Shown piece after piece: positions 16,623 through 43,755 of a stretch of 43,755 nt of DNA. The notes below the pieces were generated by a model. It did no database searches. It saw only the letters and a program-made list of their open reading frames with translations, and was not told the DNA's origin. A program made the position numbers and the translations under genes. The stretch lies in the sequence record SRR20825006_1817. One strand, given 5' to 3'. Position 1 is the stretch's first letter; each line of letters opens with the position of its first letter.

Positions 16623-18575
16623 TTATTCACCAAGTGACCATTTGAGCTCTATGTTGGAATTGGCAGGGGAGACCCTAACATAGCCTTGCATTTCTTGGTG
16701 CAGGGCAGAGCAGAAATCCGTGCAATAGAACGGCCATACTCCAACTTGTTTGGGTTCCCAGACCGAGGTCTTGGTCTGCCCGGGCATGATCAGAAGCTCG
16801 GAGGTGTTCTGACCGAGGATAGAGAAACCGTGCGGTACATCAAAATCCTGTTCGTGGTTGGTAATGTGGAAGTACACTTTGTCACCCACTTTAATACCTT
16901 CAATATTATCGGGGGTAAAGTGGCTTCGTATGGTGGACATGTACACATGGACCTCGTTGCCTTCGCGTACCACTTTGGAACCAGTGGGCGAGGTTACGGC
17001 ATAGGGGTGCTTGTTCTCATCCAAACGATAGATTTTCTTTGATTTTGGAGCCAAAATATCGGCTGGAATCCCTGCAGCATAGTGAGGCTCACCGTGCGTT
17101 GGAAAATCATAGATCAGTTCCATTTTCTCGCCAGAAATGTCATAGATCTGTGCGGAGTGCTCCATTTCGGGGCCTGTAGGCAAATACCTGTCTTTGGTGA
17201 TCTTGTTCATGGCCACTACGTATTTACCAAAGGGTTTTCTGGAGTTACCCCCTGGAATCATAAGGTGTCCTACGGAATAATAGGTAGGCTTTCTATCGAT
17301 GACCTCCCAAGTGCCCAATTTCCATTTTACCACTTCAGAAGAGATAAAGAAGGTAGTGTAGGCGTTTCCTTTACCGTCAAACTCGGTGTGCAATGGGCCT
17401 AGACCACCACTTTTTACCTGTCCGGCCAATACATCCTCAAACTTAAGGATTGGAATACCGTAGGCTTCACCGTCGAATTTCTCACCTTCTATGGCCGCTA
17501 TCATCTTGTCAAAAGAGTGTACGGTCAAGTCTGCAGACAGTTTACCATTTCCAATGATGTATTGCCCAGTTGGATCCACATCACAACCATGTGGCGATTT
17601 TGGAGTGGGCAAGAAGAATACGGCACCGGGCACCTTTAAAGGATCAACGGTCAATACCTCTTTTTTCATGGTGGTGGTTGCCATATGGGTGCTTTCATCA
17701 TAAACGTTGTGGGCATAGTTGGCAGGCATTTTGGTACCGCCGCCATTGTTCACGTATTCTTCGATTTTCTTCCAGTTGACCGCGGCAATAAAATCCTTGT
17801 CGTTCTGTGATGCATTTACCTCTTGAAGCGTGTGGGCTTCTTCTGTGTTATAGGTAGTAAAAAAGAACCATCCGTGTGATTTCCCACGACCGGGATGCGA
17901 AAGATCATAGTTGAACCCGGGCATCAACAATTGAAACTTCAAGTCCATATGACCGTGTTCTGGATCTACGCTGATAAAGGACAGAGATCCCTTGAAATTA
18001 CTTTTGTATTCATTGATGGGCATATCCCTTTGAGGAATGGGAACGGAGAAACGTGTTCCTGCCACTACATACTCCGTGTTCTCGGTAATGAATGAAGAAC
18101 TGTGGTTCCCGGCACTATTGGGTACCTCGATAATTTCTTCCGTTTCAAAAGTGCTCAAACTGATACGGGCAATCCTTGGGGTGTTGTTACCGTTGATGAA
18201 TATCCAACGACCATCCAACTCGCCATTGGTCTGCGAAATATCAGGGTGGTGGGCATCATCCCAAGGTACAAAACCGTGGGAGGTGGTCAGCATGGGCTTT
18301 GTTTCTTCAGAATATCCATATCCTGATGTTGGGAACTGGGAGAACACCGGAATCTCCTTGAACATCCTTCCAGAAGGAAGCCCATAAACGGTAAGGTTAC
18401 CGCTGTACCCGCCAGAAAGGAAAGCATAGTATTCGTCCTGCTCCCCAGGGGCAACATACACTTTTTCGGCGGCACTCGACGATAGCGCCCCATTGGAACT
18501 CTTGTTTTGTTGGCCACAGGAAACCAGTAATAAGGCGGCTCCCAGGCACATGGTCAATTGTCTATAGATTTTCAT
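16623..18575 (-). CDS. nosZ: Clade II (Sec/lipoprotein) nitrous oxide reductase
   Basis: Lipobox LVSC, no Tat motif; CuZ His motifs DAHH, GNH, SPHG, LHT, GH, EPH; CuA CTDFCSALHQEM. Confidence 0.98.
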   Translation of the reverse strand: MKIYRQLTMCLGAALLLVSCGQQNKSSNGALSSSAAEKVYVAPGEQDEYYAFLSGGYSGNLTVYGLPSGRMFKEIPVFSQFPTSGYGYSEETKPMLTTSHGFVPWDDAHHPDISQTNGELDGRWIFINGNNTPRIARISLSTFETEEIIEVPNSAGNHSSSFITENTEYVVAGTRFSVPIPQRDMPINEYKSNFKGSLSFISVDPEHGHMDLKFQLLMPGFNYDLSHPGRGKSHGWFFFTTYNTEEAHTLQEVNASQNDKDFIAAVNWKKIEEYVNNGGGTKMPANYAHNVYDESTHMATTTMKKEVLTVDPLKVPGAVFFLPTPKSPHGCDVDPTGQYIIGNGKLSADLTVHSFDKMIAAIEGEKFDGEAYGIPILKFEDVLAGQVKSGGLGPLHTEFDGKGNAYTTFFISSEVVKWKLGTWEVIDRKPTYYSVGHLMIPGGNSRKPFGKYVVAMNKITKDRYLPTGPEMEHSAQIYDISGEKMELIYDFPTHGEPHYAAGIPADILAPKSKKIYRLDENKHPYAVTSPTGSKVVREGNEVHVYMSTIRSHFTPDNIEGIKVGDKVYFHITNHEQDFDVPHGFSILGQNTSELLIMPGQTKTSVWEPKQVGVWPFYCTDFCSALHQEMQGYVRVSPANSNIELKWSLGE

Positions 18576-33448: not shown

Positions 33449-34394
33449 CTATGGGTTTGCTGTTGGAGGTGTTTGCTTTTTTACCTCGTGCCGCGCACCC
33501 TTTAAAATCTTGAAAACGTGCAATACGGATGGGAAAATGGCATCCATGGATTCCTTGGCACCATTCGTGGAGCCCGGTAAGGCCAGTACAAGCGTGTTCT
33601 TTATAGTTCCGGCAACACTTCTCGAGAGCATGGCATATGGCATACGGTCTTGGCCATATTTACGAATGGCTTCTTCGATACCTGGAATTTTTCGATCTAA
33701 AAGCGGTTGTAAAGCTTCTGGAGTTATATCACGTTGTGATAAGCCGGTTCCACCAGTAAAAATAATTAAATCCATTCCCTCGGTTTGATAGGATTTTGCT
33801 TTTTCCTGGATAATTTCCTTCTCATCGGGAACAATGATATAATCCTTGACATTTACTTCACAGTCCCCAAGTTTTTCCACAATGGCCTTACCAGCATTAT
33901 CTTCCTTCTTGCCTTCAAAAACCGAATCGGAACAAACAATTACGACCGCCTGAATATCACGCTTAAATCGATCTTTAAAACTCGATTTGCCCCCCTTTTT
34001 TTTCAAGTAGTTTTATGGAATTGATCTCAATATCCTTGTCGATGGGCTTTAACATATCATACATGTTCAAAGCTACAACACTGGCACCGTGCATCGCTTC
34101 CACTTCCACTCCCGTTCTATAAATGGTCTTAACAGTGACCAATACTTGGATTTCAAGTCCATTGATCTGGTAATCAATACCCATATATTCAATAGGTAAA
34201 GGGAGGCAATCGGGAAGCAACTCCGATGTTTTTTTTATACCAAGCAAACCAGCGGCCTTGCTCATTGCAAAAACATCGCCTTTGGGTACTGTATGGTTTA
34301 TTATGGCCTCCATGGTTTCTTTCCTGCTTAGTTTTACAATGGCCTGTGCGGTTGCAGTACGCAACGTATTGTTTTTATGTGTGATATCTACCAT
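33449..34394 (-). pseudogene. moaCB: Bifunctional MoaC-MoaB/Mog fusion, frameshifted at an A8G6 run (33990-34003)
   Basis: MVDIT, KGDV, TGVEVEA (MoaC) then TGGTG, RDITPE, LPGS (Mog/MoaB); removing one base restores LLEKKGGKS. Confidence 0.85.
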
Positions 34395-36226: not shown

Positions 36227-36463
36227 ATGCCAATAAAAAGCTACTTAGCTCTCGCTATACCTGGGAAAAAGAAGGAATTAATCCATGCTTTACAAGAAAT
36301 GGGGCAATGTGAAGTGGTCCCTGCGGAAAATCAAGATGTGTTGGCACTGGTAACCGATACAGCCAATGAAAAGGAGGACGAATTGCTCAAAGAAAAAATT
36401 GAAGGAATAGTAAGCCTTAAACTATTGTCACTTGTTTCCGGATTCAATGCTCCTCAAAAATAA
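36227..36463 (+). CDS. napD: NapD-like chaperone
   Basis: 78 aa with ferredoxin-like pattern, 2 nt before napA. Confidence 0.7.
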   Translation: MPIKSYLALAIPGKKKELIHALQEMGQCEVVPAENQDVLALVTDTANEKEDELLKEKIEGIVSLKLLSLVSGFNAPQK

Positions 36464-36465
36464 TC

Positions 36466-38799
36466 ATGTCTATGTACAAATCTATAACCAATAGAAGAAG
36501 CTTTATAAAAAAAATGGCAATGCTTTCCGCAATGACAGCAGCAGCTTCGATGTTTCCTGGGATTGTCTTTGCCAGTGAACAGGAAAAGGCTATTCCTGAA
36601 GATGCCAACCTGGATTGGAAAAAAGGTCCCTGTCGTTTTTGTGGTGTGGGTTGCGGTATTCTGGTAGGAACGGAAAATGGAAAGGCTGTTGCGGTAAAAG
36701 GAGATCCAAACTCTTCTGTAAACAAAGGCCTGTTATGTGTGAAAGGATATCACCAGATCATGTGTATCCAATCCAAGGATAGGCTCCAGCATGCCCTGGT
36801 CAAGAAAAATGGACGATATGTAAAAACCCCACTTAGCGAAGCACTTGATATTGTTGCTGACAAGATGAAGGGTACCATTGATACCCATGGCAAGGATGCG
36901 GTGGCGATGTACACTTCTGGGCAATCAACAATCCCAGAAGGCTATGTGGCCTCCAAATTCATGAAGGGAGCTATTGGGACCAATAACTTGGATTGTAATG
37001 CACGCCTTTGCATGGCAAGTGCTGTGACCGGGTTTTTAACCACATTTGGTGCAGATGAACCAATGGGCTGCTATGAAGATATCGACCATGCAGATTATTT
37101 TGTTACTTGGGGCAACAATATGGCAGAAATGCACCCTGTCCTATTCTCTAGAATGCTTGAGCAAAAAGCAACAAGGGGTGCAAAAATCATAGACTTTGCG
37201 ACAAGGACAACACGTTCAAGTACAGCATCGGACAAGTCCATACTATTTGAACCACAAACCGATTTGGCCGTAGCAAACGCCATTTGTTATGAGATCATCA
37301 AAAACAATTGGGTAAATACATCCTTTGTGGAAAAACACTGTAACTTCAGTAAGGGGCTTACCAATATGGGCTATGGGCTTGAGGACAACTACACCTTCAC
37401 GGACAAACCGGAACAGATAGATTTTGAAACCTATAAAGAATTCTTAAAGGATTACAGTCCCGAAAAAGTTTCAAAATATTCCAAAGTATCGGTTAAGGAC
37501 ATTAAGTATTTGGCCGCTATTTATGGCGACCCCAATAAAAAAGTCGTTTCCTATTGGTGTATGGGGATGAACCAACACACGAGGGGTACTTGGATAAACA
37601 ACCTGGTGTATAACATTCATTTGTTGACCGGAAAGATTTCACAACCGGGTAATGGACCATTCTCATTGACGGGCCAACCCTCAGCTTGTGGTACTGCACG
37701 GGAAGTCGGTACCTTTACGCACAAGTTGCCTCACGGTGTTGTTACGAATAAAAAGGATAGGGAAATGGCCGCCAAAATCTGGAAAGTTCCCTATGAACGT
37801 ATTCCCTCAAAACCAACCTACCATGCCACAGAAATGTTCAGGGCGGTGGATAGGGGCGATATTAAATTCATCTGGATACAGGCGACCAACCCTTTGGTAT
37901 CCCTCCCAAAAACAAGCCGTTACCGTCCCGGAATGCAAAAGGATTCTTGTTTTGTCGTGGTGTCGGATGTCTTTCCTACTCCTACTTCCGATGTGGCCGA
38001 TGTTATACTTCCCGCGGCTTGGCATATCGAGAAAAGTGGTCTGTACGGTAACTCTGAACGGAGAACACAACATTGGAATAAAATGGTGGAAGCCCCGGGT
38101 GAGGCCACTGAAGATGCATGGATGTTCATCGAGGTTGCCAGGCGGATGGGTTATGGGGATCTATTCCCTTATAGTAGAGAAAACCACGTAGAGGAAATCT
38201 TTAACGAGTACAGACGGTTCCATGAAGGACCAAAACACGGAATGGCACCTCTAGAGGTACTTAAAAAGGAGTCCGGGGTTATTTGGCCTTATGTAAATGG
38301 AAAATCCACCCAATGGAGATTCAATACCAAATATGACCCTGCCTGTTCCAATGGTGAAGACTTTCATTTTTATGGAAAACCTGATGGTAGGGCAGTCATA
38401 TGGCAACGTCCTTTTGAGGAAGCACCTGAAAAACCGGACCAAGAATATCCTTTTTGGCTCAATACCGGCAGAGTTGTGGAACACTGGCATACTGGCTCCA
38501 TGACACGAAGAATACCTGTTTTGCACCAGGCAATGCCCCATGCATATGTGGAATTTCACCCAGAGGATGCTAAATCTTTGGGAATAAGAAATGGTGAAAA
38601 GGTAAAGGTAACTTCAAAAAGAGGCTCTTGTACATTGCCTGCATCCATAAATGAAAGAGGTCTGCCTACAAAGGGACAGGTCTTTGTACCATTTTTTGAT
38701 GAAAATATGTTGATCAACGACGTAACCTTGGATGCCTTTTGCCCTATTTCAAAAGAACCCGATTATAAGAAGTGCGCTGTTAAGGTCGAAAAAGTATAG
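36466..38799 (+). CDS. napA: Periplasmic nitrate reductase catalytic subunit
   Basis: Tat RRSFIK, PCRFCGVGC, NARLCMASA, MGMNQH, GQPSACGTAREVG, EHWHTGSMT, DYKKCAV. Confidence 0.93.
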   Translation: MSMYKSITNRRSFIKKMAMLSAMTAAASMFPGIVFASEQEKAIPEDANLDWKKGPCRFCGVGCGILVGTENGKAVAVKGDPNSSVNKGLLCVKGYHQIMCIQSKDRLQHALVKKNGRYVKTPLSEALDIVADKMKGTIDTHGKDAVAMYTSGQSTIPEGYVASKFMKGAIGTNNLDCNARLCMASAVTGFLTTFGADEPMGCYEDIDHADYFVTWGNNMAEMHPVLFSRMLEQKATRGAKIIDFATRTTRSSTASDKSILFEPQTDLAVANAICYEIIKNNWVNTSFVEKHCNFSKGLTNMGYGLEDNYTFTDKPEQIDFETYKEFLKDYSPEKVSKYSKVSVKDIKYLAAIYGDPNKKVVSYWCMGMNQHTRGTWINNLVYNIHLLTGKISQPGNGPFSLTGQPSACGTAREVGTFTHKLPHGVVTNKKDREMAAKIWKVPYERIPSKPTYHATEMFRAVDRGDIKFIWIQATNPLVSLPKTSRYRPGMQKDSCFVVVSDVFPTPTSDVADVILPAAWHIEKSGLYGNSERRTQHWNKMVEAPGEATEDAWMFIEVARRMGYGDLFPYSRENHVEEIFNEYRRFHEGPKHGMAPLEVLKKESGVIWPYVNGKSTQWRFNTKYDPACSNGEDFHFYGKPDGRAVIWQRPFEEAPEKPDQEYPFWLNTGRVVEHWHTGSMTRRIPVLHQAMPHAYVEFHPEDAKSLGIRNGEKVKVTSKRGSCTLPASINERGLPTKGQVFVPFFDENMLINDVTLDAFCPISKEPDYKKCAVKVEKV

Positions 38800-38802
38800 A
38801 CG

Positions 38803-39522
38803 ATGAGAAAACGTTTGGGAATCATATCGTTCTTTGTGGTCATCTTTGTAGCATTTATAGTTATCTGGAACTATAGTTATTTACAAGGTCGGGAAGATGC
38901 CTATATCCCTGTGATCGACGTACCATCAGGAAACTATATTCCTTCTGAACGAGGAGCCTTTCTTCGATTTGAAAATCCAAATATGGATTATGCCAAAATG
39001 CCGGTGGATGAGAATCATCAGCGGTCATTGAAAGACTATTATGACAATAGGGCCTATCTGGGGGCACCGCCCAGTATCCCCCATCCAGTGGCAAAAGAAA
39101 GAAGTTTTGGAGGCAATACCTGCATACAATGTCATCAAAACGGTGGGTTCGTAGAAAAATTCAATGCGTATGCTCCCGTAACTCCGCATCCGGAAATGGT
39201 GAACTGTCGTCAGTGCCACGTTACCAAAAATACAAATACAACTTTTACGGAATTTAATTTCGATAAAATGCAACCTCCAAAAGTTGGTATAGGAGCAAAC
39301 AATGCCATGCCAGGAAGTCCCCCAATGATCCCACATCAATTGCAATTTAGGGAAAGTTGCATATCCTGCCATGCTGGTCCGAGTGCACCCAAAGAGATCA
39401 GGGTGACACATCCGGACCGCATTAATTGTAGGCAATGTCATTTGCCACAAGAAAATAGGGCCGTACAAGAGTTAGATACAAGCACTTTTTTAAGACAATT
39501 TGACCAGCTCAATGAAAAATAG
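38803..39522 (+). CDS. NapB-like cytochrome with duplicated domain (4 CxxCH)
   Basis: GAPPSIPH/GSPPMIPH repeats; CIQCH, CRQCH, CISCH, CRQCH. Confidence 0.85.
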   Translation: MRKRLGIISFFVVIFVAFIVIWNYSYLQGREDAYIPVIDVPSGNYIPSERGAFLRFENPNMDYAKMPVDENHQRSLKDYYDNRAYLGAPPSIPHPVAKERSFGGNTCIQCHQNGGFVEKFNAYAPVTPHPEMVNCRQCHVTKNTNTTFTEFNFDKMQPPKVGIGANNAMPGSPPMIPHQLQFRESCISCHAGPSAPKEIRVTHPDRINCRQCHLPQENRAVQELDTSTFLRQFDQLNEK

Positions 39523-40141
39523 AAACCCAATATATTATGTAATGCTCTTTTTTGCGGTCTCCTTCGTTTCTTGTAAGCAAGAAGGGGAGTACCATTCCAT
39601 TACCGATAAAATAGAAGCTCACCAAAAACCCTATCATGGTGGTTTATCCTCCGAAGAGTTGCTTGTAGGTACTGATTTGATACAAATAGCAGAGGGTGAA
39701 CATACGTTTCTTATCCCCGAACGAAAAGGACAGATCAAATCATATGCCTGTATAGAATGTCATAGCAAACCTTTGAACGAGATGAAGGGCGCTAACGGTC
39801 AGAAAGCACATTGGGATATAAAAATTAACCATGCGGCCATTGAAACAATGGATTGTGCAACATGTCACAATCCGGATAATATGAATAACCTCAAAAGCCT
39901 TACAGGAACAGATATCGATTATAATTTGAGTTATAAACTCTGCGCCCAATGCCACAGCAAGCAGTTTGAAGATTGGAAAGGTGGTGCACACGGAAAAAAA
40001 GTGGCAGGATGGGCGCCGCCAAGGGCATCCATGACCTGTGTCAACTGCCATAACCCCCATAATCCAGGTTTTGAAACCAGGTGGCCCGTACAGTTTAATA
40101 CTCAAAAAGTAAAGGAACGAAAAGATGGCCTAGGTCATTAA
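39512..40141 (+). CDS. Tetraheme cytochrome c lipoprotein
   Basis: Lipobox FVSC; CIECH, CATCH, CAQCH, CVNCH. Confidence 0.9.
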   Translation: MKNRNPIYYVMLFFAVSFVSCKQEGEYHSITDKIEAHQKPYHGGLSSEELLVGTDLIQIAEGEHTFLIPERKGQIKSYACIECHSKPLNEMKGANGQKAHWDIKINHAAIETMDCATCHNPDNMNNLKSLTGTDIDYNLSYKLCAQCHSKQFEDWKGGAHGKKVAGWAPPRASMTCVNCHNPHNPGFETRWPVQFNTQKVKERKDGLGH

Positions 40142-40151
40142 AAATATAGGT

Positions 40152-41279
40152 ATGAGCGAAAGTAAAAAATGGTATTCTTTAGACTTGGGTCTACATAAAA
40201 AATCGGAACCTTCAGAGACCTGTGGCTGTGGCCATACGCAAGGAAGTTGCGGCAGTAGCCCCAAACAAGAAAAATTGAGTGCTGAGGAATTCTATGAGGC
40301 GGCCATCAACGCTTCCATCGGTGACGAAAGAAAAAGGGATGGCTTTGAGCAGGTGTTCGATGTTAAAATGGACAGAAGGGATGCTTTTAAAAAACTAACC
40401 GCCAGTCTTCTTATTGGTGCAGGTGCGGTCAGCTCCTGTACAAGTGTGGTCCAAGGAGCGGATAGCAAGGAAAAAGCACAGATAGATTGGGAAGAGCAGT
40501 TCAAAGGCAATTATAAATTGATGACCGATGACGAAAAAAAGCGGACCGTTGATAGGTTAATGCGTTCTTATGAATTAAGAACAGGCAAGAGCATCAACAT
40601 GTCATCGAAGAATGCTGAGGAGGACGTGCTTTTTGGATATGCGTTCAATATTTCCAAATGTCAAGGATATATGGACTGTGTAAGTGCTTGTGTCGAAGAA
40701 AACAATCAGGACAGAAAATCACAGATGCAGTATATCCGTATCCATGAGATGAAAGATGGTAAAGGCTTCAATTTTAATGAGGCCGATGACAATTATTATC
40801 ACGAAGTACCGGCCGAAGGTCATTTTTATATGGGTACCCAGTGTTTTCATTGCGATAACCCTCCTTGTGTGGATGTTTGCCCTGTCCAAGCAACCTGGAA
40901 AGAAGAAGATGGTCTGGTAGTGATTGATTATGATTGGTGTGTTGGATGCCGTTATTGTATGGCTGCGTGCCCGTATGACGGAAGACGCTTTAATTGGAGC
41001 AAGCCCGAGGTTCCTGAAAATGAAATCAATAAAAATCAACACTATCTCGGAAATAGAATCCGTAAGAAAGGTGTAATGGAAAAGTGTACATTTTGCGTAC
41101 AGCGGTCAAGAAACGGTAAAAACCCTGCCTGTGTGGAAGCTTGCCCTACAGGAGCCAGAATTTTCGGAAACTTACTGGATCCCAATAGCACCATCCGATG
41201 GGTGTTGGAGAACAAGAAAGTGTTTCGATTAAAGGAAGATCTGGGCACGGAACCCAAGTTCTGGTATTTTATGGATTAA
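40152..41279 (+). CDS. NrfC/DsrO-like Fe-S protein
   Basis: CFHCDNPPCVDVCP, CVGCRYCMAACP, KCTFC...ACVEACP; internal RRDAFKK. Confidence 0.9.
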   Translation: MSESKKWYSLDLGLHKKSEPSETCGCGHTQGSCGSSPKQEKLSAEEFYEAAINASIGDERKRDGFEQVFDVKMDRRDAFKKLTASLLIGAGAVSSCTSVVQGADSKEKAQIDWEEQFKGNYKLMTDDEKKRTVDRLMRSYELRTGKSINMSSKNAEEDVLFGYAFNISKCQGYMDCVSACVEENNQDRKSQMQYIRIHEMKDGKGFNFNEADDNYYHEVPAEGHFYMGTQCFHCDNPPCVDVCPVQATWKEEDGLVVIDYDWCVGCRYCMAACPYDGRRFNWSKPEVPENEINKNQHYLGNRIRKKGVMEKCTFCVQRSRNGKNPACVEACPTGARIFGNLLDPNSTIRWVLENKKVFRLKEDLGTEPKFWYFMD

Positions 41280-41357
41280 AAATTAAAATACAGAAGAATC
41301 TACAACCTATGGGCTTTGTTGGTAACACTGTATTGGCAATGCGAAAAACAATAGAGA

Positions 41358-42590
41358 ATGAGACAATTAAAAGTGATCAGGAGCTTGGTGATCGATAGTT
41401 TGGACACGATTACCAAAGGCTCTAAAAAATACCACCTTTGGATGGGTTTTTTAACCCTTGTCATGCTCATTGGGATGTACTGCTATTCCATTCAGTTGGA
41501 TGAGGGATTAAGCGTAACTGGAATGACGGATAGGGTCAGTTGGGGGCTCTATATTTCAAATTTCACATTCTTGGTAGGCGTAGCGGCCGCAGCGGTAATG
41601 CTTGTAATGCCCACCTATGTTTTGAAGGATATTGATTTTAAACAGGCCGTCCTTATTGGGGAAGGACTGGCAGTGGCTGCTTTGATCATGTGTCTGGCGT
41701 TTGTTGTTGCAGATATGGGCGGGCCATCGGTGTTATGGCATATGATTCCAGGTATCGGTGTATTTAATTTTCCGAATTCCATGCTCACTTGGGATGTAAT
41801 CGTACTCAACGGATATCTCTTCATCAACATTAGTATTCCCTTTTATATACTTTACAGACATTATCAGAATAAAGAGGCCAAGAAGAGCATATATGTGCCG
41901 GGCGCTGTATTGTCCGTATTCTGGGCTGTCGGTATCCATTTGGTGACCGCATTCCTTTATCAAGGGCTACAGGCACGCCCTTTTTGGAATAACGCGTTGT
42001 TGGGGCCTCGATTCCTTGCCTCTGCATTTGCCGCTGGACCTGCGTTGATCATATTGGTGTTGGCGATAATCCGTTCTTTTACGGCGTTCAAAATACCAGA
42101 TAAAACCATAGGGAAAATTGCCATGATCGTCACGGTTGCTGCGCAAATCAATTTGATCATGCTGGTCTCGGAACTGTTCAAAGAATTTTATGCACCCACA
42201 CACCACAGTGAAAGTGCCTATTACTTATTTTTTGGACTCCATGGGAAAAATGCATTATTGCCCTGGATTTGGACGGCCATACCCCTTAATGTTTTGGCCA
42301 CGGTTATGTTGACCTTCGGAAAACTCCGAAAAAACCCAAAAATATTATACTTCTGTTGCTTTATTCTATTTGTGGCCATATGGATTGAAAAAGGGTTTGG
42401 TCTAATTGTGCCAGGATTTATTCCTGGGCCTTATGGCAAAATTGCGGAATACCTGCCTACGGGGATTGAGGTGGGCGTTACTTTGGGTATTTGGGCATTA
42501 GGGGCATTTGTCTTTACTATTCTTGCAAAAACCGCTATTGGAATCGAGCTTGGGGAATTACGGTTTAAATTAAAACAAACAGAATCGTGA
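41358..42590 (+). CDS. NrfD/DsrP/PsrC family membrane quinol oxidoreductase subunit
   Basis: WGLYISNFTFLVGVAA, ADMG, SMLTWD, RFLASAF; about 10 TM. Confidence 0.9.
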   Translation: MRQLKVIRSLVIDSLDTITKGSKKYHLWMGFLTLVMLIGMYCYSIQLDEGLSVTGMTDRVSWGLYISNFTFLVGVAAAAVMLVMPTYVLKDIDFKQAVLIGEGLAVAALIMCLAFVVADMGGPSVLWHMIPGIGVFNFPNSMLTWDVIVLNGYLFINISIPFYILYRHYQNKEAKKSIYVPGAVLSVFWAVGIHLVTAFLYQGLQARPFWNNALLGPRFLASAFAAGPALIILVLAIIRSFTAFKIPDKTIGKIAMIVTVAAQINLIMLVSELFKEFYAPTHHSESAYYLFFGLHGKNALLPWIWTAIPLNVLATVMLTFGKLRKNPKILYFCCFILFVAIWIEKGFGLIVPGFIPGPYGKIAEYLPTGIEVGVTLGIWALGAFVFTILAKTAIGIELGELRFKLKQTES

Positions 42591-42863: not shown

Positions 42864-43484
42864 TCAAGTAGATTTTTTTACTCTTTTTACGGTGTTCAGT
42901 GCTGGTTTTGCGACTAATTTTATCAAACGTAAAAAACGTCCGTCCGCTGGGTATCGACGCTCCGGGGTCAAGTTGTTGAAGGTAAGTGCTACCAATAACA
43001 TGATGAGGACTCCACTGAAAACCGGGAAGAGGACATACCAATATCCCAATCCGATGATTTTTTCGGAACCTATTACAGCGATAAGAGCCGTTGCTCCACC
43101 AGGGGGGTGGAGGGTCTTACTGTATTGCATGGCCAGAATGGAAAGTGAGACGGATAGGGCAGCGGCAAGCCATAGAATATCTCCAAATAATTGACAGATT
43201 GTAACGCCTATGACAGCACTGATGACATGGCCCCCAATCAGGTTACGAGGTTGTGCCAAAGGACTATGGATGGCTCCATAAATTAACACTCCTGTCGCAC
43301 CAAAAGACCCAATGAGCAATATGTTGTCCGATTGGTCAAGATAATGGCCCTGAAAGACACCGATACAGGCAATACCAATAAAGGAACCCAAGAATGACCA
43401 AAGTTGTTCTTTGGGCTCCACAGAGGTTTCCCTATAAACGATATACCTCCCAATTCGATACCCTCGTTTGAAATTCTTTCGCAT
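42864..43484 (-). CDS. HPP family membrane protein
   Basis: SFGAT, SPLAQPRNLIGGH, LHPPGGATAL; ATG 43484 preferred. Confidence 0.92.
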   Translation of the reverse strand: MRKNFKRGYRIGRYIVYRETSVEPKEQLWSFLGSFIGIACIGVFQGHYLDQSDNILLIGSFGATGVLIYGAIHSPLAQPRNLIGGHVISAVIGVTICQLFGDILWLAAALSVSLSILAMQYSKTLHPPGGATALIAVIGSEKIIGLGYWYVLFPVFSGVLIMLLVALTFNNLTPERRYPADGRFLRLIKLVAKPALNTVKRVKKST

Positions 43485-43755
43485 AGGCGGCCAAAGATAC
43501 ACCCTTGCTTGGATGAAGCAATGTCCTTCTCTGATATTTTGGACTTTGTTTGGTACTTTTTTGTTATGAGGATAACGCTTATGGTAAATGTATAGGTTCT
43601 GTCACATTAGTATGGAGTGTTACATAATCATATACATATTAAGCTGGTTGAAAACTTAAAATTGGAAACTTTCACGTTTAGAAGTAAAATGCTTAAGGAT
43701 TATTACTATTTTTACCACAGTTTAACACATAAAAAATGTGTTCAAAAGTTGTTTT

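Follow-up and report, generated by a model that had tools for sequence, protein, structure and literature searches.

The 43,755 nucleotides (nt) of sequence record SRR20825006_1817, referred to here as the window, belong to a marine flavobacterium and carry an operon for a periplasmic nitrate reductase (Nap) that lacks napC, napG and napH and ends with genes for a tetrahaem lipoprotein cytochrome, an iron-sulfur (Fe-S) protein and a membrane protein of the NrfD family. Nap is usually taught as a non-energy-conserving system that is fed by NapC or NapGH. The first-pass annotation of this DNA had described contiguous genes for NapD, NapA, a NapB-like tetrahaem cytochrome, a tetrahaem lipoprotein, an Fe-S protein and an NrfD-family protein. 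The open reading frame (ORF) listing contains these six ORFs at the same positions, 36227-42590, all on the plus strand and with intergenic gaps of 2, 3, -11, 10 and 78 nt in order. They are listed below with lengths in amino acids (aa); Tat stands for twin-arginine translocation.

36227..36463, plus strand: probable NapD, 78 aa, Tat-proofreading chaperone for NapA (position, Pfam match below the cut-off, fold)
36466..38799, plus strand: NapA, the catalytic molybdoenzyme, 777 aa (NF010055, motifs)
38803..39522, plus strand: membrane-anchored tetrahaem cytochrome c with tandem NapB-like dihaem units, 239 aa (Pfam NapB, four CxxCH motifs)
39512..40141, plus strand: tetrahaem lipoprotein cytochrome c, 209 aa from the ATG at 39512 (four CxxCH motifs, lipobox)
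40152..41279, plus strand: Tat-exported Fe-S protein, DsrO/NrfC-like, 375 aa (NCBIfam scores)
41358..42590, plus strand: NrfD-family integral membrane quinol-binding subunit, DsrP-like, 410 aa (Pfam NrfD, NCBIfam DsrP)

A scan of species genomes yielded 371 relatives of the membrane protein, and the counts of related genome loci use the best 80 of them. The first ORF is probably NapD, which is the weakest identification of the six. Its Pfam NapD score of 15.6 bits (E 0.017) is below the gathering score of 28. It ends 2 nt before napA, is conserved in 76 of the 80 related loci, and its orthologue in Flammeovirga is named 'chaperone NapD' in RefSeq. The AlphaFold2 model (pLDDT 92.7) has a beta-alpha-beta-beta-alpha-beta, ferredoxin-like fold that matches the NapD structures 2pq4 (TMq 0.76, rank 21) and 2jsx (TMq 0.69), but also many unrelated ferredoxin-like folds. 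The second gene is a bona fide NapA. It passes the NCBIfam model NF010055 (952.8 bits, cut-off 904), scores slightly under TIGR01706 (916.7 against 930.55 bits) and matches E. coli NapA (2nya) with an E-value of 6.7e-239. The Tat motif RRSFIKK at residue 10 and all four ligands of the [4Fe-4S] cluster, Cys56/59/63/91, are present. The molybdenum (Mo) ligand Cys182 lies within RLCMASA, aligned with E. coli NapA, and this motif is conserved in 76 of 76 related genome loci.

The third protein has CxxCH motifs at residues 107, 135, 186 and 209 and reaches 39 bits with Pfam NapB (gathering score 25.1) across residues 65-113. It contains the dihaem unit with a PPxIPH-type distal His by which NapB is recognized, and its top PDB sequence matches are the NapB chains 1ogy_B, 3ml1_B and 1jni_A (E 0.0059-0.23). 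It differs from the NapB family by two tandem dihaem units and an N-terminal membrane helix (hydrophobic residues 5-23). The two halves align with a score of 101 compared to 25.1 +/- 5.0 for 500 shuffles (z 15), which indicates a tandem duplication of a NapB-like dihaem unit. The eight-haem wire proposed in the first-pass annotation is right in its count, but its first tetrahaem protein is a duplicated NapB, hereafter double NapB, instead of a plain one.

The lipoprotein cytochrome contributes the other four CxxCH motifs (Pfam Paired_CXXCH_1, 40.4 bits). Cys21 in an S-C-K lipobox and His28/100/107/160/183 are invariant over 38 sequences. Translation could start at TTG 39500 or ATG 39512, of which the ATG is more likely; an Atlas record starts there. 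No close relative was found in the PDB (best E 0.0034), and a comparison with NrfH by hhalign gave a local profile match of just 39 columns (probability 86%, E 5e-6). Membership in the NapC/NirT family was rejected, with 21 bits against a Pfam Cytochrom_NNT cut-off of 24.1 and a lipobox in place of a helix, and so was a relationship to DsrJ, to which the similarity is not significant (E 0.074).

The Fe-S protein narrowly misses the NCBIfam DsrO model NF045797 (197.6 bits, cut-off 200), scores 147.2 with QrcC and 128.3 with NrfC, and is 35 % identical (E 5e-48) to a DsrO with dsrJ/dsrP context. Its mature part holds 15 Cys. The first cluster motif is C-x5-C-x3-C compared to C-x3-C-x2-C-x3-C in DsrO, and one of the clusters may therefore be of the [3Fe-4S] type or use a ligand other than Cys. 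Two further features set it apart from DsrO, namely a 45-residue insert and an unusual N-terminus. The twin-arginine motif is located at residues 75-76 rather than at the N-terminus and is preceded by a 72-residue stretch (40152-40376 correspond to residues 1-75) that is conserved in all 80 genome loci. This extension includes the blocks KKWFSLNLG, SCGCGKxxGxC and DGFxQVFDVKM with three Cys (CGCGxxxGxC), and its Cys block is duplicated in some Aquimarina loci. DsrO begins at the RR motif and thus lacks the extension. In most of the metagenome relatives described below, the RR is 12-26 residues from the start, and Cys-bearing extensions were found in three loci only, all of them Nap-linked.

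For the membrane subunit, the ten transmembrane segments and the NrfD family named in the first-pass annotation were both confirmed by ten hydrophobic segments and a Pfam NrfD score of 114.3 bits (cut-off 25.8); it has no CxxCH. Among the NCBIfam models it passes DsrP NF045798 with 421.7 bits (cut-off 350), far ahead of QrcD (41.5) and TtrC (25.6), while DsrP proteins with dsr context score 452-490. The nearest solved chain is ActC (6btm_C, E 5.5e-10). It is not a canonical DsrP in its context, since its neighbors are nap genes, nor in its position in the tree presented below.

Co-occurrence with NapA and absence of NapC, NapG and NapH

The claim that an NrfCD/DsrOP-type module stands in the place of NapC/NapGH was examined in a family sample of 151 genomes of Flavobacteriaceae, each from a different genus. 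NapA scored over the cut-off in 31 genomes, and a full-length DsrP-like gene was found in exactly the same 31, always on the same contig and 4-5 kb away. In addition, a DsrP-like fragment occurs in a 32nd family genome, 83 % complete. The operon type is present in about a fifth of the sampled genera, and the replacement of NapC/NapGH by this module is well supported by co-occurrence.

The related genome loci show the same pattern. The six genes are in identical order in 76 of the 80 loci. Contig ends truncate three of the remaining four, so the module is co-operonic with napA in 76 of the 77 uncut loci. The names of all 80 are Flavobacteriaceae or unclassified Bacteroidia. Across these many genera the membrane protein, 87-100 % identical, is better conserved than any other product of the operon. 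Among public records, Flagellimonas lutimaris comes closest, with a membrane protein of 100 % identity. The operon also occurs on a megaplasmid of Flammeovirga (Cytophagales). In a phylum sample of 401 genomes, NapA was over the cut-off solely in three Flavobacteriaceae, and among the 401 genomes of a class sample covering 84 families, the nearest genome to the window, G001, gave the sole match at E<=1e-100.

The first-pass annotation had also noted the lack of napC, napG and napH. This holds beyond the operon in G001, which shares 70 % of the window's words and is 99 % complete. In this genome, NapG had no match, NapH reached 31 bits compared to a cut-off of 213, and the best NapC/NirT match, at 19.2 bits, was the lipoprotein cytochrome itself. 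In the family sample, NapH was over the cut-off in one of the 151 genomes, one without NapA, and the other NapH matches were proteins of about 530 aa at 60-72 bits. Genes of the NapC/NirT family were detected in 22 genomes, namely 12 of the 31 with NapA and 10 of the 120 others. Inspection of 14 of these 22 (all 12 from NapA genomes and two others) identified every one as NrfH (155-176 bits against a cut-off of 134), with NrfA (635-679 bits against 595) after it. As NapC/NirT genes occur in just 12 of the 31 NapA genomes, the remaining 19 have no NapC/NirT protein at all. In one genome (G026, C6:189846-191768), nrfH-nrfA directly follows the nap membrane gene, which places the reduction of nitrate and that of nitrite in a single locus.

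Assembled contigs from RNA libraries give a weak sign of operon transcription, as such libraries may hold DNA. Seven short contigs from one marine metatranscriptome are identical to the window and cover napD, napA, both cytochrome genes and the membrane gene. In a seawater metatranscriptome from a second study, 95-99 % identical contigs bridge the napA/double-NapB and Fe-S/membrane junctions.

This layout is common in Flavobacteriaceae, yet it is missing from current reviews of Nap. It represents a fifth nap operon type, found in about a fifth of the sampled genera of this family and in other lineages. Surveys based on napC/napGH as markers, together with annotation as 'DsrP', misread the nitrate-reducing capacity of abundant marine heterotrophs.

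Relatives of the triad and competing readings

The position of the lipoprotein cytochrome, Fe-S and membrane genes, hereafter the triad, was assessed with relatives of the membrane protein. Among 1.84 billion representatives, a search found 2188 relatives with E<=0.001, and 248 when the threshold was E<=1e-30. A quick maximum-likelihood tree with a midpoint root only was built from 57 of 150 listed relatives (those of 360-470 aa, without 93 fragments or fusions), joined by 6 of the 37 Nap-type rows and by 7 rows for DsrP in a dsr context. It separates a clade with DsrP (28 rows) from one with the Nap type (42 rows), and the SH-aLRT of this split is 91.

The nearest sequence relatives are those of DsrJOP: the membrane protein is 40-47 % identical to DsrP encoded beside dsrJ-dsrO, and the Fe-S protein 35 % identical to DsrO. 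In the phylum sample, such relatives of the membrane protein are found in 63 of 87 genomes of one family, probably the green sulfur bacteria, and in one genome of another. Genes for a trihaem cytochrome and an Fe-S protein precede the membrane gene in all eight loci inspected, and both of the two loci scanned pass the DsrJ, DsrO and DsrP models. These are true DsrJOP sets. DsrMKJOP comprises DsrM, DsrK and the trihaem DsrJ, whereas the operon has none of these and contains a tetrahaem lipoprotein and NapA as the acceptor instead.

Given this relationship, the four genes downstream of napA might do another job, for example in sulfur metabolism, while alternative complex III and a soluble cytochrome c feed NapA. 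The DsrP cut-off passed by the membrane protein would fit such a role, as would the second of the two NrfD-family genes in G001, which lies outside the operon and is probably ActC. Furthermore, the membrane gene on plasmid p1 of Flammeovirga kamogawensis (L134 9001-10218) carries the RefSeq/PGAP label 'sulfate reduction electron transfer complex DsrMKJOP subunit DsrP'. Nevertheless, this explanation is highly improbable because there is no dsrJ-like gene (the lipoprotein cytochrome matches DsrJ at E 0.074), the quick tree sets the Nap type outside the clade of DsrP with dsrJO context, and the module co-occurs perfectly with NapA. Since the window's membrane protein passes the NCBIfam DsrP model, the name 'DsrP' can be expected to be wrongly given throughout Flavobacteriaceae as well.

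A metagenome scan seeded with a five-sequence alignment of the second, Nap-type clade yielded 80 loci with 47-77 % identity to the window's membrane protein. Wherever 2.5 kb or more of upstream sequence was available (40 loci), the cytochrome, Fe-S and membrane genes are all present in this order, with the tetrahaem cytochrome always directly upstream of the Fe-S gene. NapA-like genes (tblastn, at least 400 bits) were detected in 11 of the 80 loci, with one partial gene at a contig end. The double NapB was matched in 11 loci, each of which has a NapA-like gene, and not once in the 68 others. The Mo-ligand Cys is kept in 8 of the 11 NapA-like genes; the three with Tyr or His in its place (L177, L198 and L211) are 50-51 % identical and have the same layout.

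Several findings weigh against the six genes being a dedicated nitrate-reducing system. Of 18 metagenome loci whose flanks are long on either side, nine have NapA nearby and nine lack it. In five of those without NapA (L167, L176, L189, L190 and L199), the membrane gene is directly followed by one for a multihaem protein of 460-620 aa (Pfam Multi-haem_cyto, PF13447). The triad is therefore not Nap-specific. Likewise, Haloflavibacter putidus (L073 5453-9248) keeps the four downstream genes without napDA, and no match was found in its genome in a NapA-family search at E<=1e-20. The lack of napC/napGH outside the operon was established in the near relative G001, not in the window's own genome. 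Finally, the RNA evidence consists of assembled contigs, and two runs, X2 and X3, gave contigs of 13-25 kb at 90-95 % identity that are more likely DNA of a relative than RNA. As the triad is kept both with and without NapA, it can be regarded as a portable quinol-side module to which NapD, NapA and the double NapB are one pluggable acceptor unit. A hybrid-cluster protein near the triad in L199 and an Rrf2 regulator in L176 hint at another N-oxide reductase as a client of the triad.

It is thus possible, if rather unlikely, that the triad serves as a general menaquinol:periplasmic-cytochrome oxidoreductase, similar to Cbc4 of Geobacter, with Nap as one client and NosZ among the others. The triads beside multihaem proteins and the Haloflavibacter locus are consistent with this. 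Regarding NosZ, a clade II nos cluster (nosZ 16623-18575) is located in the window, 18 kb from the operon, and 24 of the 31 NapA genomes of the family carry NosZ too. However, apart from the one fragment, the module is absent from all 120 family genomes without NapA, and it shares its operon with napA in all but one of the uncut loci. NosZ was found in 83 of the 151 genomes, that is, in the 24 with NapA and in 59 that have neither NapA nor the module. NosZ is therefore independent of the module, and the suggestion that the module is needed to feed NosZ was not borne out. The distribution of the module tracks NapA, not NosZ. G001 has two nosZ copies (C14:197576-199525 and C6:91685-93634), which are 100 % and 92 % identical to the NosZ of the window. 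In this genome, NirK was not found over the cut-off and neither NrfH nor NrfA was found; NirS gave no match, nor did it in the control genomes. Judging by these genes, the organism looks like a reducer of nitrate to nitrite that is able to consume nitrous oxide (N2O) too.

The triad, read as the quinol dehydrogenase of Nap, can be compared with known systems, beginning with Nap itself. The 2026 review PMC13223375 gives, in its accessible text, four classical nap operon types, napEDABC, napDAGHB, napCMADGH as well as napAGHBFLD; the gene order described here is outside these four. The operon shares NapD, NapA, a NapB-type cytochrome and periplasmic nitrate reduction with classical Nap. Unlike the latter, it lacks NapC, NapG, NapH, NapF, NapL, NapM and NapE, its NapB is duplicated and membrane-anchored, and its quinol dehydrogenase belongs to another protein family. 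The same type of chain is found in E. coli NrfABCD, in which electrons pass from quinol through an NrfD-type protein, a four-cluster ferredoxin and a multihaem cytochrome to a periplasmic N-oxide reductase, according to the relevant passages of PMC8076601 and PMC6303296. Its parts are the pentahaem NrfB, the Fe-S protein NrfC and the membrane subunit NrfD, and the acceptor is a nitrite reductase. The Fe-S protein of the operon is far from NrfC, scoring 128.3 against a cut-off of 377.6, and NrfD proper is absent among the NCBIfam matches. The wiring is swapped relative to E. coli: in these Flavobacteriaceae, Nrf uses NrfH and Nap uses the NrfCD-type module.

A matching published architecture is the 'DsrOhPh-tetrahaem' locus with DsrOP homologs and a tetrahaem cytochrome c, described in the available parts of PMC13047784 and bioRxiv 10.64898/2026.08.25.746951 for cable bacteria, some Desulfobulbales and Gamma- and Betaproteobacteria, including organisms without sulfur metabolism. 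Like the triad, it is described there as combining a bis-His tetrahaem cytochrome with an Fe-S protein similar to DsrO and a membrane protein similar to DsrP, all encoded apart from dsrMK, and the published DsrPh clade lies beside canonical DsrP, similar to the position of the Nap type in the quick tree. The operon's triad thus appears to match this family in its architecture and tree position. In these parts of the two papers, the locus is called a 'candidate alternative complex III' with 'unknown metabolic function' and no link to Nap is made; the triad described here differs by being inside a nap operon. Likewise, the accessible text of PMC10926707 reports DsrOP homologs alongside a tetrahaem cytochrome for cable bacteria and other organisms, calls their function unknown and mentions no link to Nap. 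The findings presented here offer a physiological job for such modules, namely as quinol dehydrogenase for Nap and periplasmic multihaem reductases.

Cbc4 of Geobacter sulfurreducens, a proposed menaquinol:cytochrome c oxidoreductase, has the same three-part architecture by its description in the text seen of bioRxiv 10.1101/2025.04.14.648717, with the tetrahaem CbcS, CbcT with four [4Fe-4S] clusters and the membrane protein CbcU. According to the same text, CbcS has bis-His haems in a NapC/NirT-like haem core and is anchored by a helix, compared to the lipid anchor here, and the partners of Cbc4 are PpcA-type cytochromes for extracellular electron transfer. The alternative-complex-III-like clusters beside nar and nap genes in metagenome-assembled genomes of Planctomycetota, reported in a portion of PMC10732223, are a different module. 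In the main texts of the searched literature, no paper describing a nap operon with an NrfCD/DsrOP-type module was found. The term 'Nap' is absent from a 2021 review of NrfD-like subunits (PMC8076601), the list of NrfCD-type modules in the consulted section of PMC6303296 has no nitrate entry, and the terms 'NrfD' and 'quinol' are absent from PMC13223375. The observation is real and far from chance; both the enzyme and the type of module are known, and their combination is undescribed in the searched literature.

Proposed electron path and energetics

The six genes very probably form one operon for a menaquinol:nitrate oxidoreductase, in which the triad is most likely the menaquinol dehydrogenase of Nap. 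What was observed directly is which genes are present, their cofactor motifs, the co-occurrence with NapA and the lack of NapC/NapGH. We infer in which order the carriers act, which of them touch, which quinol is used and which way the electrons run, as follows. Menaquinol would be oxidized at a periplasm-facing site of the DsrP-like membrane protein. Its electrons would then travel by way of the Tat-exported Fe-S protein with its clusters to the four haems in the lipoprotein cytochrome and on to another four in the membrane-anchored double NapB. From there they would reach the [4Fe-4S] cluster of NapA and its molybdenum bis-molybdopterin guanine dinucleotide (Mo-bis-MGD), where nitrate would be reduced to nitrite in the periplasm. 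The triad would thus act as a self-contained quinol dehydrogenase module that does the job of NapC or NapGH elsewhere, with NapD, NapA and the double NapB attached as the acceptor unit.

This order resembles that in a 2026 cryo-electron microscopy (cryo-EM) preprint on DsrMKJOP. Its available text places menadiol in DsrP within 8 A of a DsrO cluster, describes a conserved Asp leading to a periplasmic cavity, and has electrons flow from DsrP to DsrO to DsrJ. The residues of the quinone site and polar pathway of DsrP1, as tabulated in the consulted part of a review (PMC8076601), fall on residues that are invariant over 37 Nap-type and 7 DsrP sequences, a mapping based on spacing because the Desulfovibrio sequence is outside the alignment. 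The invariant set comprises Y65, T70, Y87, E102, D119, S141, D146, Y153, S186, H194, T197, R207, R218, S222, E272 and K345.

Judged from DsrP, the quinol protons probably leave to the periplasm, and the step itself would be electroneutral. Since nitrate reduction consumes protons in the same compartment, a scheme with periplasmic release would be electroneutral, like NapC. Alternatively, the DsrP-like subunit could couple quinol oxidation to proton translocation or an electrogenic loop, which would make Nap energy-conserving, as the first-pass annotation had considered possible. By established potentials, about 0.5 V is available from menaquinol to nitrate. For nitrate, a value of +420 mV is quoted in the accessed part of PMC6195509. 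Polar and charged residues in the membrane do not vary between the Nap type and DsrP, among them K345 at the place of the proposed gating Arg/Lys, and the high conservation of this subunit across genera is also compatible with coupling. QrcD, another member of the NrfD family, is electrogenic according to the relevant passage of PMC6303296. However, Qrc runs in the opposite direction, and in the available text of the cryo-EM preprint, the protons from quinol oxidation in DsrP are released on the periplasmic side, with no clear structural basis for vectorial transport or pumping. Energy conservation by this route is therefore unlikely. Less likely still is its combination with a role of the pre-Tat Cys stretch as a cofactor- or redox-sensing checkpoint for export. 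Compared to DsrMKJOP, the operon is a genetically simpler system for asking whether DsrP-type subunits move protons.

Genomic surroundings

Upstream of the operon, the molybdenum-cofactor genes MoeA, MoaC and MoaB are located on the opposite strand. Two overlapping ORFs at 33449-34394 (minus strand) match the MoaC half and the MoaB half of the bifunctional MoaC/MoaB model, for which a split gene, a frameshift or overlapping starts could each account. In the Haloflavibacter locus, where the genes for the double NapB, the lipoprotein cytochrome and the Fe-S and membrane proteins also adjoin molybdenum-cofactor genes, a single ORF of 281 aa contains both domains. A search for FNR-type boxes gave 5 matches compared to 4.5 expected, with none upstream of napD, and promoter- and terminator-like sites were found at chance level. 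The window further encodes three Rrf2 regulators, ScdA and an anaerobic ribonucleotide reductase.

An HPP-family membrane protein is encoded immediately downstream of the operon (42864-43502, minus strand) and is found at this position only in the Flagellimonas-like loci L007-L009. A 427-aa ORF at 31973-33256 matches an 'Alginate export' porin, and 19 of the 80 related loci have homologs on the same strand, at most about 3 kb upstream of napD. This porin is perhaps an outer-membrane anion channel linked to Nap.

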